A stretch of DNA of 64,000 nt, from positions 11,688 to 75,687 of IMG/VR virus record IMGVR_UViG_2974767555_000001. The stretch is one strand, 5' to 3'. The first letter of the stretch is position 1. Each line of letters begins with the position of its first letter. This DNA is from a virus. Its lineage: Duplodnaviria > Caudoviricetes. Below are positions 20,130 through 58,822 of the stretch, in pieces. The position numbers and the translations under genes are program-made. The notes beneath the pieces were generated by a model. The model did not search any database and was not told the origin of the DNA. It saw only the letters and a list, made by a program, of their open reading frames with translations.

Positions 20130-20234
20130 TCCAGTAAACCCTCTCAGCAAATATTCCAGCCTTTGGCCTGGTCAACGTACACTTCTAGCGTAGTCAACTA
20201 GTCAACGGTTGGTAAGCGAGCTAGACTTCCGCGC

Positions 20235-20468
20235 ATGACAACGACGCCCCAACCACTAACCAGCGAGCAGCGAGACAAGCCGACACCCCAGGTGCGGAAG
20301 CGCCATCTGAAGGCCTTGGCGAAAGCGCGAGCAAACCAGATCAAGGCCCAGGACGAGGTGCGGCAGTTGATCATCGACGGGTTCGCGCTGGGGATCAGCG
20401 GTCAGGACCTGGCTGATGCCGCAGGCGTTTCCAAGCCCCGGGTGTACCAGATCAGGGATGGGCGATGA
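20235..20468 (+). CDS. Helix-turn-helix DNA-binding protein
   Basis: GISGQDLADAAGVSKPRVYQI HTH; -10-like TAGACT at 20222-20227, 7 nt before ATG (leaderless). Confidence 0.8.
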   Translation: MTTTPQPLTSEQRDKPTPQVRKRHLKALAKARANQIKAQDEVRQLIIDGFALGISGQDLADAAGVSKPRVYQIRDGR

Positions 20469-20662
20469 CGGGGCCGTCCCCGGCCCACGTGTGGGTGATG
20501 ACCGTTGACACCGACGAGGCCGGGTTTGTCAGCGTCCACACCACCGAGGATGGGGCCAGGGCCAAGCTCCAGGAGATCGTGGACCGTTGGGGCCTACAGG
20601 AATCGCTCGACGGTGACGAGCTGGTGCACAGCATCGCCTACCTACCGGTGCAGACCCCGTGA
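20465..20662 (+). CDS. Hypothetical protein
   Basis: Coupled overlaps at both ends; SVHTTEDGARA motif. Confidence 0.65.
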   Translation: MTGPSPAHVWVMTVDTDEAGFVSVHTTEDGARAKLQEIVDRWGLQESLDGDELVHSIAYLPVQTP

Positions 20663-21021
20663 GCGCGGTGCCGTCCGGTGGGGTGCTGATCTACCCGACC
20701 GGCAAGGTGGCCAAGGTCGCTGGGATGCTTGGCCTTCGGGAGCTGCAGCGTGACATGGGCGGGTACGTCCAAGCGGTACCGGTGGAGTGGGACGACGACG
20801 GCACGACCAGCACGACCCTGTGGTGTAACGAGGACGGCAAGGCGATGGGGCTGCCGGTCAACGACCTGGCCACCCGGGTGTGGTGGACGCTGTGCCCAGA
20901 GATGGCCAATCGTGACAACCTTGTCGGCACAGTGCTTTTCACCGGGCCGGTACAGGAGTCGGGGTACGGCCAGCTGACCCAAGCCGCCTGGGATGTCATC
21001 GAAACCATAACTACGGCATAG
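20659..21021 (+). CDS. DUF3846-like protein
   Basis: LQRDMGGYVQAV, WCNEDGKAMGLPVN and LVGTVLFTG motifs. Confidence 0.75.
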   Translation: MSAVPSGGVLIYPTGKVAKVAGMLGLRELQRDMGGYVQAVPVEWDDDGTTSTTLWCNEDGKAMGLPVNDLATRVWWTLCPEMANRDNLVGTVLFTGPVQESGYGQLTQAAWDVIETITTA

Positions 21022-21028
21022 GGTTTCG

Positions 21029-21103
21029 GCCACCGTAGCTCAGATTGGAGAGAGCAGCCGCCTTCTAAGCGGCGGGTCGCAGGTTCGAGTCCTGCCGGTG
21101 GCG
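21029..21103 (+). tRNA. tRNA-Arg(TCT)
   Basis: Full cloverleaf: GCCACCG/CGGTGGC acceptor, GCCGC-CTTCTAA-GCGGC anticodon arm, GCAGG-TTCGAGT-CCTGC T arm. Confidence 0.95.
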
Positions 21104-21106
21104 CGG

Positions 21107-21180
21107 GGGGTGGTAGCTCAGATGGTCAGAGCCACGGACTCATAATCCGTAGGTCGCGGGTTCAAGTCCCGCCCACCCCA
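21107..21180 (+). tRNA. tRNA with CAT anticodon (elongator Met or Ile2)
   Basis: GGGGTGG/CCACCCC acceptor, ACGGA-CTCATAA-TCCGT anticodon arm, GCGGG-TTCAAGT-CCCGC T arm; paired 1:72, so not initiator-type. Confidence 0.93.
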
Positions 21181-21287
21181 CACCAGAGGTATCTTGGAAC
21201 CCGCTGTAGCCGAACGTGCCGGTAAGCGTCGGGGGTACGCAGGGTCACGAAGTTGGCCCCCGACCGCTACAGCCCGCGAAACGAACT

Positions 21288-21314
21288 GTGCCCCACCCGA
21301 TCCGGGTGGGGCAC
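21288..21314. terminator. Bidirectional terminator-like hairpin
   Basis: Perfect 12-bp stem GTGCCCCACCCG-ATC-CGGGTGGGGCAC between the tRNA transcript and a converging gene. Confidence 0.75.
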
Positions 21315-21321
21315 CTTGCTG

Positions 21322-21570
21322 TCAGCGCTGGTGGCTGGCAGGTCTCCAGCGTAGGGGCATCGCGTGGAACACCACCAGCTCGTTGGGCGACCGGTTGCCG
21401 TCGCGGGCGATGACCTCCAACCAGGTCCCCCGGTTGTCACGACCGATGAAGACCACCTGACCCTTGGCCTCCACCACGGTCGGGTTCGCGTGGCGCATGG
21501 CGGTGCGTATCCGACCCTTGGACACCCCGTGCTTGCGCGCGCTGCGGGTGATCTTGACGAACTGGCTCAT
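21322..21570 (-). CDS. RelE/BrnT-like toxin-family protein
   Basis: 82 aa basic protein: ITRSARKHGVS...IGRDNRGTWLEVIA...VVFHAMPLR pattern of actinobacterial RelE-superfamily toxins. Confidence 0.65.
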   Translation of the reverse strand: MSQFVKITRSARKHGVSKGRIRTAMRHANPTVVEAKGQVVFIGRDNRGTWLEVIARDGNRSPNELVVFHAMPLRWRPASHQR

Positions 21571-21588
21571 GTCTACCCCCGGGGGTTG

Positions 21589-21651
21589 GGAGCTGGTCTG
21601 GTACCTGCTCCGGTGGTCGGGAGTCTAGCAACCTATACCGACAGCGCGCCA
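21589..21651 (-). promoter_or_regulatory. Cassette promoter/operator/hairpin (leftward copy)
   Basis: Minus strand: TGGCGC-N18-TAGACT; palindrome at 21623-21638; hairpin GGAGC-A-GGT-ACCAG-ACC-A-GCTCC. Confidence 0.75.
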
Positions 21652-56764: not shown

Positions 56765-57271
56765 ATGACCACTGACAACGAGATCAAGGGCACGTTCGAC
56801 GCCCCGGGCACCACCATCTGGGCCACCATCCGGGCCGACCAGCTGGTCCCCGGCGACAACATGGCGTTGATCACCGAGTGGGGCCGCATGGTGGTCGAAG
56901 AGGCCTACCTGGTGACCCGCCGCAACCGGGTCCTGGTCATCGGGGAGCTGACCGACCATCACGCAGCAGGCCAGCGCGACTACGTGAGCGTGAAAGCTGA
57001 TGACCAGGTGGGGATCTTCTACACCATCACCGAGGGCAACGGGTGGAGTCGAGAAGCACCGGGGGAGTGGACCTACAGCGACGCATGGGGGGTGCTGGCC
57101 CTGGTCACCGGGGGCACCACCGGGACCAGTTGGGAGTACCGGGTGGTCGACCCCGACCACCCGGGCGGCAACCCCCTGGCGACCGGTCTGCACGCGCGCC
57201 TGCCGGAAGCGCAGCGCGCGGTGATGTCAGCGCTGGAGCAGCTGAAGGCGAACCGGCAGGACCGTTCCTGA
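56765..57271 (+). CDS. Hypothetical protein
   Basis: RBS AAGGA; IRADQLVPGD (Hint/SH3-like start). Confidence 0.7.
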   Translation: MTTDNEIKGTFDAPGTTIWATIRADQLVPGDNMALITEWGRMVVEEAYLVTRRNRVLVIGELTDHHAAGQRDYVSVKADDQVGIFYTITEGNGWSREAPGEWTYSDAWGVLALVTGGTTGTSWEYRVVDPDHPGGNPLATGLHARLPEAQRAVMSALEQLKANRQDRS

Positions 57272-57336
57272 CCGTTGACCGGCCCGACACCCCCGACCCA
57301 GTTTGGGCCGGGGGGTAAACCGGTTTGGGCAGGTGG

Positions 57337-57401
57337 TTGCGGGTTGTCGGTATAGTGCCCTATACTCGAACTATCACCGGGGCAGGTACAAGACCAGCCC
57401 C
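57337..57401 (+). promoter_or_regulatory. Cassette promoter/operator/hairpin
   Basis: TTGCGG-N18-TATACT; perfect palindrome GTATAG-TGCC-CTATAC at 57350-57365; hairpin at 57379-57401. Confidence 0.85.
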
Positions 57402-57421
57402 ACAACCCGAGAGGGGTCAGC

Positions 57422-57640
57422 ATGACCAGCATCTTCACCGTCACCGTTGTCGGCGCGACCAAGGAGGCCACCTACACCTCCGTGTTCCCGTCCGAGCCCG
57501 CTGCCGTGGGCTACCTGCGCGACATGTTTGGGGAGGAGGTGGACCTGGCCGATGCGGAGACCACCGAGGAGGTGGTGGCCGCCATCAGCGCCACCGAGGA
57601 GGTGGAGTACGTGATGGTGGACGAGCACGACCTGCCGTAA
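57422..57640 (+). CDS. Small acidic protein
   Basis: 72 aa, many E/D residues; follows the cassette SD. Confidence 0.75.
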   Translation: MTSIFTVTVVGATKEATYTSVFPSEPAAVGYLRDMFGEEVDLADAETTEEVVAAISATEEVEYVMVDEHDLP

Positions 57641-57717
57641 CCGGCACGGGGGGTGGCCACCCCACCCCCCACCACCACCCCAACCCCCACCCGATCACCA
57701 GCCAGAGGACAAGCCAG

Positions 57718-57894
57718 ATGACCGCCACGTGTGACTGCCTGACCCAGTACGACGCCACCCTGCCGCACGCTGGGGAAATCTGCCCCCTGGCCGATCCCGA
57801 CACCAAGCTGGACACCCTGCGCGAGCTGGCCGAGCTTGCCGCGTACAAGGACATCGGTGCCGCGCTGATCGCCTACCGGCAGCTGACCCGCTGA
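57718..57894 (+). CDS. Small hypothetical protein
   Basis: RBS GAGGA; MTATCDC...H...CP. Confidence 0.6.
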   Translation: MTATCDCLTQYDATLPHAGEICPLADPDTKLDTLRELAELAAYKDIGAALIAYRQLTR

Positions 57895-57935
57895 CCCACC
57901 ACCCACCCATCACCACCACGGAAGGACCTACCGAC

Positions 57936-58271
57936 ATGACTACCGCCACCATCGACATCGCCACCCCCACCCAGGAGCTGGAGTGGGAAGCGGTCGGCCA
58001 GACCGGGTTACGCGCCGCCGACCCCAACGGGAACGGGACCTGGCGAATCTGGATGGGCACCGTCAGCAACTACCAGCTGGTGTTCATCGACAACGACGGG
58101 ACCGAAACCAAGTACGGCCCCCGTCGTTGGGGTGGTCGCCAGGTGGGTCGGGACGCCGAGGGTAACCGCATCATGGAGTACGGCTGGTTCACGCTGTCGC
58201 ACGGGTGTTTTCGCGAGGGTCTGATCGCCGCGCGGGAGTACGCCGCCAAGCTGGTCGCCAGCACCCGCTGA
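57936..58271 (+). CDS. Hypothetical protein
   Basis: RBS GAAGGA. Confidence 0.7.
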   Translation: MTTATIDIATPTQELEWEAVGQTGLRAADPNGNGTWRIWMGTVSNYQLVFIDNDGTETKYGPRRWGGRQVGRDAEGNRIMEYGWFTLSHGCFREGLIAAREYAAKLVASTR

Positions 58272-58368
58272 TCGAACGTGAACGGGGGTCGGGCCTCCCC
58301 TCTCTGACCCGACCCCCAGCGACATCACTACCTCACCCAACACCACCACCGAAGGAGAACACCCAAAC

Positions 58369-58725
58369 ATGACCACTGCCACCACATCTGCCTGGATCGC
58401 CAGCGTGCCCGCCATCGTGGTCGCCGCCGCCGAGGAATCGGGGTGGACCCTGATCGGAGACGAGACCAGCGACACCCGTTCGCTGGTGCTGGGCAAGGAC
58501 CGCCACGAGCTGCTGGTGCGGTTCCGACCCAACGGCGCGATCCACTACGCGGCACACAACGTGTACAGCGCCAAGGGGGTGCCCGACAGCGTGCCCGAGG
58601 TCTACGCGCGCGGTCAGCTACCGGACGAGGACGCACCTGTCAGCGGTGAGGCGACCGACGCCCGGTACACCCCTGCCGCGCTGCTGGCACACGTCCTGGG
58701 TCAGATTGGCGGGTACCGGTTGTGA
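58369..58725 (+). CDS. Hypothetical protein
   Basis: RBS AAGGAG. Confidence 0.7.
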   Translation: MTTATTSAWIASVPAIVVAAAEESGWTLIGDETSDTRSLVLGKDRHELLVRFRPNGAIHYAAHNVYSAKGVPDSVPEVYARGQLPDEDAPVSGEATDARYTPAALLAHVLGQIGGYRL

Positions 58726-58792
58726 CCACCCGCTGACCCACCCCCCGACCACCCCCAACCCGCGCCGGTCGGGGGTGCGTTATGGCTGGTAG

Positions 58793-58822
58793 TTGCGGCA
58801 CTCCGGTCTAGTGAGCTATACA
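58793..58822 (+). promoter_or_regulatory. Cassette promoter/operator, leaderless copy (no hairpin)
   Basis: TTGCGG-N18-TATACA; GTCTAG-TGAG-CTATAC at 58806-58821; ATG 6 nt after the -10. Confidence 0.8.

Follow-up and report, generated by a model that had tools for sequence, protein, structure and literature searches.

A repeated 16-bp element and its cassettes

The DNA analyzed here (the window) is a 64-kb stretch that represents bases 11688-75687 of a 75,687-bp virus record. It contains a palindromic 16-bp element, GT(C/A)TAG-N4-CTA(T/G)A(A/C), which recurs in front of accessory genes, and a gene at 20235 for a small helix-turn-helix (HTH) protein, gp(20235), with related sites directly upstream. 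The source phage is a cluster Y mycobacteriophage; the window is around 95% identical to Mycobacterium phage Nadezda, a member of cluster Y (PMC12699233), and its similarity to the phages Bipper and Cracklewink comes in patches that are around 82% identical. A preliminary description of this DNA had proposed that the element is the operator of a dimeric repressor, with a right half that doubles as the -10 box, and had named gp(20235) as the candidate binder.

A search with the pattern GTMTAG-N4-CTAKAM recovered nine exact sites (13 strand hits) in the window, whereas 100 dinucleotide-preserving shuffles yielded 0.00 exact matches. The exact sites start at 21623, 21723, 22890, 26327, 51482, 52475, 55508, 57350 and 58806. 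A degenerate copy with two mismatches is present at 25022 (GTATAGAGAGCTACCC), and at 20211 (GGTAAGCGAGCTAGAC) the right half alone has been kept. The list of sites that had been given before is thus borne out, with one qualification that concerns the half-matching site at 20211: its right half stands, its left half is degenerate, and two cores in the vicinity had been overlooked. The core TAG-N4-CTA was observed 12 times in the window against 0.89 expected; ten of the cores are at the listed sites and the other two (20104 and 20191) are located closely upstream of gene 20235. On the + strand GTCTAG occurs nine times, eight of them inside sites, and the five occurrences of TATAA in the window are all found within cassette sites. 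No further copy of the 16-mer was recovered across the whole phage genome.

On the basis of an alignment and an nhmmer profile, we found that the sites are embedded in a repeated cassette of around 125 nt. The cassette consists, in this order, of a T-rich stretch, a -35-like TTGCGG, 7 variable bases, the 16-mer, 8-12 variable bases, a hairpin, around 10 bases, a GAGG-type Shine-Dalgarno (SD) sequence and the start codon, with the 16-mer located 45-70 nt upstream of the latter. The hairpin (GGGGC-A-GGT / loop / ACC-A-GCCCC) lies in the 5'-untranslated region. Eight of the nine full cassettes point rightward and the copy at 21623 points leftward. The cassettes are listed below, together with site 58806; the terms operator, promoter and drives denote predictions, and ORF stands for open reading frame.

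21551..21675, - strand: leftward cassette; operator 21623-21638, which reads GTATAGGTTGCTAGAC on the - strand (nhmmer 76.7 bits)
21686..21810, + strand: cassette; operator 21723-21738, -35 at 21710-21715; drives the ORF ending at 22778 (340 aa from GTG 21756; aa, amino acids)
22852..22976, + strand: cassette; operator 22890-22905; drives 22957-23205 (82 aa)
24985..25108, + strand: cassette; degenerate operator 25022-25037; drives 25090-25227 (45 aa)
26291..26415, + strand: cassette; operator 26327-26342; drives 26396-27598 (400 aa, phrog_1362); mobile element MPME1 directly upstream
51446..51571, + strand: cassette; operator 51482-51497; drives 51553-52287 (244 aa; weak CXXCXGXG zinc-finger-like match)
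52439..52563, + strand: cassette; operator 52475-52490; drives the ORF ending at 52915
55474..55597, + strand: cassette; perfect palindrome GTCTAGTGGACTAGAC at 55508-55523; drives 55580-55816 (78 aa)
57317..57441, + strand: cassette; perfect palindrome GTATAGTGCCCTATAC at 57350-57365; drives 57422-57640 (72 aa)
58780..58828, + strand: promoter and operator without the hairpin leader; operator 58806-58821; ATG at 58829, 7 nt on; gene 58829-59014 (61 aa)

The site at 21623 had been noted before, and it is real, but it needs to be redefined as part of a complete leftward cassette. In this copy a hairpin (GGAGC.../...GCTCC) and an SD sequence are followed by a BrnT/RelE-like toxin ORF (21570<-21322), which matches phrog_36779 'toxin' and which the cassette would drive. 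Besides this toxin, the cassette-driven genes encode the 340-aa protein, the 400-aa phrog_1362 protein, the zinc-finger-like 244-aa protein and several proteins of 45-135 aa without known function. Because the ATG follows the operator by 7 nt, the transcript from 58806 is probably near-leaderless. The modules of the cassette are separable: 58806 has the promoter and operator alone, and at 23957, 24325, 53023 and 54780 the hairpin and SD sequence are found alone.

To define the constraints on the element, 20 cassettes from the window, Nadezda and Bipper were compared. The -35 TTGCGG is kept in 17-18 of the 20, 18 bp before TATAA(C/A), and the P_R promoter of the same phage has the same -35. The 7-nt spacer between the -35 and the 16-mer is random (<0.45 bit per position), whereas positions 1-6 of the 16-mer are conserved in 20/20 copies, with C (17) or A (3) at position 3. 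Within the right half CTA is likewise invariant (20/20) and is followed by T (16) or G (3), A (19) and A (13) or C (7). The pairs T2/A15, T4/A13, A5/T12 and G6/C11 constitute the dyad. The 4-nt centre had been described as freely varying, which did not hold: it leans to TGAG (T16, G17, A15 and G18 of 20), and TGAG is found in eight of the nine Bipper sites.

Read as a -10, the right half provides TATAA(C/A) with an 18-bp spacer and a G at -14, which puts the left half at about -23 to -18. The -35 and the 16-18 bp spacer of a SigA-type promoter are present. The proposed overlap of the right half with the -10 fits the position and the invariant T-12 and A-11 (20/20), but TATAA(C/A) lacks the T at -7 in 16 of the 20 copies. 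Since this T occurs in only four copies, a scan for the canonical sigma-70 consensus called none of the cassettes. Given the rarity of the T at -7 and the empty scan, the promoter assignment is non-canonical and the promoters should be taken as putative.

We know of no RNA polymerase contact at sigma-70 promoters that reads the sequence at -23 to -18. Considering that the unconstrained positions of the same copies have drifted, the left half is under a selection of its own, and a dimeric binder would require just the dyad symmetry that it forms with the right half. The presence of an invariant left half beside a random spacer argues for the dimer-type operator over the -10 that had been envisaged.

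The HTH protein, its promoter and its relatives

The candidate regulator is encoded by a short gene with two sites and a divergent gene upstream.

20235..20468, + strand: candidate regulator gene; 77 aa; predicted leaderless transcript
20211..20226, + strand: O1, proximal operator of the promoter P_HTH; GGTAAG-CGAG-CTAGAC; -10 TAGACT at 20222-20227; 7 nt before ATG 20235
20188..20203, no strand assigned: O2, distal operator; GCGTAG-TCAA-CTAGTC; overlaps the -35 TAGTCA at 20199-20204; 23 bp from O1
19944..20129, - strand: divergent 62-aa gene; homologue of Bipper gp38 (tblastn, 65% identical)

The protein gp(20235) has a long helix at its N-terminus and a three-helix HTH at its C-terminus, with the recognition helix ...SKPRVYQIRDGR. 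An AlphaFold2 model made with a multiple sequence alignment (pLDDT 90.9) has helices at residues 18-51, 56-63 and 67-74. In Pfam only HTH_23 was retrieved (18.4 bits, below the cut-off of 24.6), and in PHROGs the protein matches phrog_686. A phmmer search yielded a family of 58 representative clusters, mostly 55-110 aa in length and ending in ...G(L/V)SxPRVYQIRDGRR. The recognition helix of the family reads G-(L/V)-S-x-x-R-(V/I)-(Y/H)-Q-I-R, in which R69 and Q72 are invariant; including Y71, I73 and R74, five positions are (nearly) invariant. Bipper gp39 is 58% identical to gp(20235) and carries a 7-residue insertion in the N-terminal helix, which is compatible with a coiled-coil dimer interface. 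The Foldseek and PDB sequence searches recovered generic three-helix HTH matches only, and NCBIfam, PADLOC and Pfam gave no informative name. In our literature search no paper was found on the motif, the recognition-helix string, the HTH family or the regulation of cluster Y phages. The protein resembles sigma region 4, and the gathering threshold of Sigma70_r4 (PF04545) was not reached by the phage protein. As region 2 is missing, we do not classify it among the sigma factors.

The layout of P_HTH is the same in the lineages of the window and of Bipper: a -35 TAGTCA in O2, a 17-bp spacer, a -10 TAGACT in O1, 7 nt and the ATG. As the -10 is only 7 nt before the ATG, the transcript would be leaderless. 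In Bipper O2 reads GAGTAG-CGCG-CTAGTC at the same 23-bp spacing to O1, and between the lineages the centres of O1 and O2 differ and the TAG and CTA arms are kept. The opposite strand of O2 offers a -10-like hexamer (TACGCT; TANNNT) that faces the leftward gene (20129<-19944); the promoter reading of O2 is putative, and the divergent gene is probably co-regulated through this site. A third TAG-N4-CTA core (20104-20113) is located inside the 5' end of the divergent gene and is not conserved in Bipper.

The 16-mer has been kept in two diverged cluster Y lineages, with an identity of around 82% in patches and of 58% between the HTH proteins. Bipper has the 16-mer nine times in the 50 kb examined. 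Eight copies, GTCTAGTGAGCTATA(A/C), occur in full cassettes before genes 42 (BrnT-like toxin), 43, 44, 45, 49, 111, 113 and 120; the copy before gene 49 is the orthologous counterpart of the 26327 cassette. The ninth, GTCTAGAGAGCTAGAC, is perfectly palindromic and lies 8 nt ahead of the ATG in gene 39, the orthologue of gene 20235, and the same palindrome is found on the leaderless -10 of the orthologue in Cracklewink. Together with the metagenomic and chromosomal relatives described below, these palindromes support the earlier suggestion that gp(20235) is an autoregulating binder.

The cassette itself was seen solely in cluster Y phages (Nadezda, Bipper, Cracklewink). A blastn search against phages returned four records, all of cluster Y; a pattern scan of IMG/VR returned Bipper alone and a scan of species genomes single chance matches only. 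The Nadezda counterpart of the 55508 cassette (L023:6600-6720) has GTCTAGTGAGCTATAA with unrelated upstream flanks, where the window has the perfect palindrome. Because Nadezda has a different promoter copy and different flanks at this position, whole cassettes appear to be exchanged by recombination between phages that are 95% identical. In the toxin cassette of Nadezda, which has the operator GTCTAGTTTGCTAGAC and a GGGGC/GCCCC hairpin, both a compensated hairpin change and an operator change are seen relative to the window.

Outside the cluster Y phages, the closest relatives of gp(20235) were recovered on soil-metagenome contigs, in which the gene is leaderless and preceded by same-core sites, paired in most lineages. 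T(C/A)TAG-N4-CTA(G/T)A sites are carried by contigs L028, L029/30, L031-48, L051 and L092, with one site 5-8 nt before the start. The sites of L029/30 (TTATAGcgcgCTATAG and TTCTAGcgcgCTATAC) are 46 bp apart, and those of L031-48 are TTATAGcgtgCTATAA and TTCTAGcgcgCTAGAA, the distal one being faced by a divergent gene. The cluster-Y-like contig L028 and contig L092 have one exact core each, and the O1-type site of L028 is GGTAAG-TGAG-CTAGAC. After dereplication the site was present in seven of 43 metagenome lineages, with 10 matches in around 11.5 kb of upstream windows versus 8 in 146 kb elsewhere. IMG/VR yielded one relative only.

Three distant HTH relatives from soil (L054, L068 and L072) have (A/C)GGTAG-N4-CTACTC palindromes within 0.2-1.2 kb and none of the main type at the start; these may represent a variant of the operator.

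Among 401 sampled genomes of Actinomycetes, 18 were found to contain a homologue in a profile search. At 11 or more chromosomal loci the module constitutes the N-terminus of a protein of around 280 aa that exceeds the threshold of Pfam Sigma70_r4 (PF04545; 26.4 and 29.9 bits versus 24.1). At these loci (at least 11) GTCTAG-N4-CTAGAC(T) is found 25-45 nt before the start of the homologue, and a second site, GT(C/A)TAG-N4-CTA(G/T)AC, precedes the neighbouring gene for an anti-sigma-like ATPase. In the whole genomes of five actinobacteria (3.6-10.9 Mb, at least one of Streptomyces) the exact palindrome occurs one to three times per genome and in every case at the homologue locus or within around 6 kb of it; the reversed pattern, used as a control, was found 0 times in four of the five. 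A sigma-region-4-like HTH module is widespread in Actinobacteria, and gp(20235) appears to be its stand-alone form; in Streptomyces-type chromosomes this HTH is fused to a C-terminal domain and paired with the anti-sigma-like ATPase.

The two-gene chromosomal locus consists of an anti-sigma-like HATPase gene (around 135 aa) followed by the gene of the around 280-aa protein with the N-terminal Sigma70_r4-like HTH. It was recorded at the actinobacterial loci L117, L120, L122, L123, L125-L129, L131 and L132 (genome G001 is Streptomyces ipomoeae), and no paper on it was found in the literature.

Proposed circuit and competing explanations

We consider it likely that the 16-bp element is the operator of gp(20235), the phage's own 77-aa HTH protein, which would repress both the cassettes and itself in a circuit that is separate from immunity. 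A dimer of gp(20235), probably held together by the long N-terminal helix, would put its recognition helices on the half-sites T(C/A)TAG and CTA(G/T)A, whose centres are 9 bp apart, or about one helical turn. The operator would form part of a SigA-type promoter that has been duplicated (TTGCGG, 18-bp spacer, G-n-TATAA(C/A)) and would span about -23 to -8, so that the bound dimer would exclude RNA polymerase from the -10. In this way around ten promoters of accessory genes, which form two blocks (21.6-26.4 kb and 51.5-58.8 kb), would be shut, and gp(20235) would also limit its own leaderless promoter via O1 and O2, and probably the divergent gene 19944-20129 too. The circuit would be independent of the BPs-type integration-dependent immunity repressor; with respect to timing, it could act in the lysogen by silencing accessory genes, or during lytic growth by shutting off early genes. 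Dimer binding is suggested by the dyad symmetry, the one-turn spacing of the half-sites and the position over the -10, and it is this position that points to repression and not activation. The sites, their selective conservation and the link between the HTH family and the palindrome were established in silico, and the assignment of the protein to its operator seems as strong as sequence alone permits.

Several observations count against this assignment. The left half of O1 in the window is degenerate (GGTAAG), and a co-regulation of gene 20235 with the cassettes would by itself be no proof that its product is the regulator. In 36 of the 43 usable dereplicated metagenome lineages, and at cluster F gp44 (distant relatives), no palindrome is present at the start. 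In pairwise comparison the phage protein and the Streptomyces-type chromosomal proteins are modestly similar, with 41% over 32 residues. Moreover, unrelated low-GC phages in IMG/VR carry triplets of TATAG-N4-CTATA without such an HTH in the sequence examined, and such palindromes may readily arise near -10 boxes; the low-GC cases call for caution and provide no support.

The low-GC records (L112-L116; 39-53% G+C) were found by scanning IMG/VR for CGCG-centred palindrome pairs. They have two or three TATAG(C/T)GCGCTATA palindromes, around 25-40 bp apart, like an OR1-3 array; three are present in L113, L114 and L116, and no RVYQIR-type HTH was seen in the L112-L116 sequence examined.

With regard to origin, the evidence seems evenly balanced as to whether cluster Y has captured an actinobacterial HTH-operator module (GTCTAG-N4-CTAGAC) in the form of a 77-aa protein, the operator of which was welded into an exchangeable cassette of promoter, hairpin and ribosome-binding site, such that accessory genes, including a toxin, join an immunity-independent regulon by acquiring the cassette.

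The main rival of repression by gp(20235) is that the protein does bind the palindrome but activates, by recruiting or re-targeting RNA polymerase to -10 boxes that lack the T at -7, with positive autoregulation as in the operons of extracytoplasmic function (ECF) sigma factors. The non-canonical -10 of the cassettes would agree with this, as would the match of the family to Sigma70_r4, the annotation of some cluster F homologues as sigma factors and the anti-sigma-like ATPase that adjoins the chromosomal homologues. However, we judge activation to be unlikely because of the geometry, a dyad at about -23 to -8 and over the -10 being that of a repressor, and because good TANNNT boxes (TAGACT, TAGAAT, TATACT) are contained in the sites at the promoters of the regulator itself. 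In addition, a protein without region 2 cannot act as a sigma factor. The geometries of MerR-type and class II activators were considered and rejected, as the dyad centre is near -16 and not at -22 or -41.

It is also improbable, in our estimate, that another protein binds the element (the XRE-type HTH of gene 24626, the immunity repressor or a host regulator) and that gene 20235 is merely a member of the regulon. The 24626-type HTH and the repressor are also common to both cluster Y lineages (67% identity), and BPs-type repressors bind several dispersed promoters (PMC4557955). Yet, the palindrome tracks the homologues of gp(20235) into metagenome contigs and chromosomes, where the other phage proteins were neither searched for nor seen, and in the five whole genomes it is found solely at or near the homologue locus. 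The individual candidates are weaker as well. The immunity repressor must act at P_R and P_rep, and the motif is missing from both. Gene 24626, which the preliminary description had put forward as the alternative, has no site at its own start and is apparently frameshifted relative to Bipper gp48; its relatives in other phages are at most 40% identical and too distant to judge specificity. The 38016 HTH (HTH_3, 67 aa) has no homologue in Bipper 28000-77832, though Bipper keeps the operator.

Bipper gp48 (173 aa, XRE-type HTH, annotated as antitoxin) matches window 24496-25027 in two frames, with residues 1-45 at 24496-24630 and residues 49-171 at 24626-24994, so that the 24626 gene of the window would be frameshifted or N-terminally truncated.

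That there is no dedicated binder, the 16-mer being the conserved core of a cassette spread by duplication and recombination and its symmetry incidental, would fit the evident descent of the cassettes from one another, the swapping of whole copies between close relatives and the conservation of the TGAG centre and the G at -14, but is very unlikely considering that the left half has not been randomised like the unconstrained positions of the same cassettes, that established knowledge of sigma-70 promoters offers no polymerase contact to explain it, and that the palindrome is not confined to cassettes, being present at P_HTH, where the -35 differs and the hairpin is missing, and at non-homologous promoters in bacteria and metagenomes.

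The separation of the proposed gp(20235) circuit from immunity had been put forward before and is supported by the promoters of the immunity region.

29128..29490, - strand: immunity repressor of the BPs gp33 type, outside the 16-mer circuit; 56% identical to cluster G1 repressors

The type of this repressor fits the integration-dependent immunity, with an attP-containing repressor gene, that had been assumed. The 16-mer is absent from P_R and P_rep, and none was found in the repressor/P_R region 29100-29760, in agreement with the absence reported earlier; because the motif is absent there, the 16-mer circuit would be a separate one. P_R has an element of its own: it reads TTGCGG...TAATAC and contains TGCGAATATGCGTA at 29688-29701, which is unique in the window and conserved in Bipper. 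The BPs repressor homologue binds a different, 12-bp palindrome, CGACATATGTCG, which is present at its P_R, and also the extra promoters P6, P27 and P55 (PMC4557955). The repressor at 29490 is a weaker candidate for the 16-mer in that its family has this different known operator.

A lysogen of the K4 phage Yasnaya_Polyana has been reported as immune to Nadezda (PQ495709; PMC12699233). No homologue of the 20235 HTH was found in cluster K phages, and given that the cluster Y repressor is of the BPs type, this cross-immunity is explained neither by the HTH nor by the repressor.

Relation to known systems and further features of the cassettes

The 16-mer system would work like the dispersed repressor regulons of other phages, yet it belongs to none of those compared. 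It would resemble the repressor and stoperators of cluster A (L5 gp71, TipsytheTRex; PMC9283540) in that one phage HTH protein acts on dispersed sites (more than 10-20) and silences many units. The cluster A stoperators are asymmetric 13-mers of the immunity repressor, a two-domain monomer; they depend on their orientation, and elongation in short intergenic gaps is blocked by them as well (PMC9283540). In contrast, the sites described here are palindromic, located on the -10 of a putative promoter, and would belong to a circuit apart from immunity. With the BPs gp33 system (PMC4557955) the phage shares the type of repressor, which in BPs has extra target promoters; the operators differ in sequence and layout, and the 16-mer is not found at P_R/P_rep. 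The start-associated sequences (SAS) of cluster K and their extended form (ESAS) are alike in being a repeated cluster-specific motif with an inverted repeat before non-structural genes, with the hairpin and SD sequence of our cassettes at the same position (PMC3203893). SAS, an asymmetric 13-mer, is found a few bases away from the start codon, and its discoverers saw little support for the ESAS hairpins (PMC3203893), whereas the 16-mer is located 45-70 nt upstream of the start, at the predicted promoter. The SAS 13-mer GGGATAGGAGCCC gave two matches in the window at up to two mismatches (1.78 expected), neither at a cassette. Membership of the cluster A, BPs or SAS systems can be dismissed on these grounds, since the defining features of each were looked for and found to differ.

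Two further systems are comparable in part. The controller (C) proteins of restriction-modification systems are small dimeric XRE-type HTH proteins that regulate one operon from a leaderless transcript with two adjacent palindromic operators. The small HTH protein and the leaderless two-operator autoregulation are shared, the dimer and the autoregulation being predictions in our case; unlike the C proteins, gp(20235) is sigma-region-4-like, has a long N-terminal helix and would act on around ten further promoters. Homology to C proteins was not detected, C.BclI appearing as a weak Foldseek row only. In the Streptomyces phage phiC31 the immunity repressor c acts on conserved inverted repeats (CIRs) at many similar early promoters. 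A palindromic operator repeated at similar promoters of an actinophage is what the two systems have in common; the phiC31 binder is the immunity repressor and the sequences are unrelated. As far as the literature and database searches show, the binder family and the operator have not been described before.

No regulatory elements have been described for cluster Y phages, and what their accessory genes do is not known. One small protein that is predicted to switch around ten promoters would provide a handle on these genes, including the BrnT/RelE-like toxin and the widespread 400-aa protein. If the proposed circuit is correct, it would constitute a second repression circuit in a temperate phage beside integration-dependent immunity, and a compact, portable set of repressor, operator and promoter for mycobacterial genetics. 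It also predicts a DNA target for an uncharacterised HTH family that occurs in Streptomyces-type chromosomes beside an anti-sigma-like kinase.

Some other features of the region deserve mention. The mobile element MPME1 (window 25820-26276), of which cluster F and G phages carry copies with 99% identity, lies around 15 bp in front of the 26327 cassette. This cassette and the 400-aa gene are present in Bipper and Cracklewink; in Nadezda the cassette is missing and no equivalent of the gene is annotated. The gene that directly follows P_R (window 29715-30152) is the counterpart of Bipper gp53. With regard to the excision and Cro functions, homologues of Bipper gp52 ('excise') and gp63 (HTH) were looked for across the entire window and none was recovered.

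Finally, two pairs of the cassette hairpin vary in a compensatory manner, and 21 of the 22 copies retain the internal mismatch. The promoter-less modules of hairpin and SD sequence are located between genes, at window 23957-24002, 24325-24365, 53023-53061 and 54780-54853. In their stems a compensatory GGC/GCC replaces GGT/ACC, and the copy at 23957 closes the internal mismatch. This suggests that the modules represent a separate element acting at the RNA level, on stability, processing or translation.

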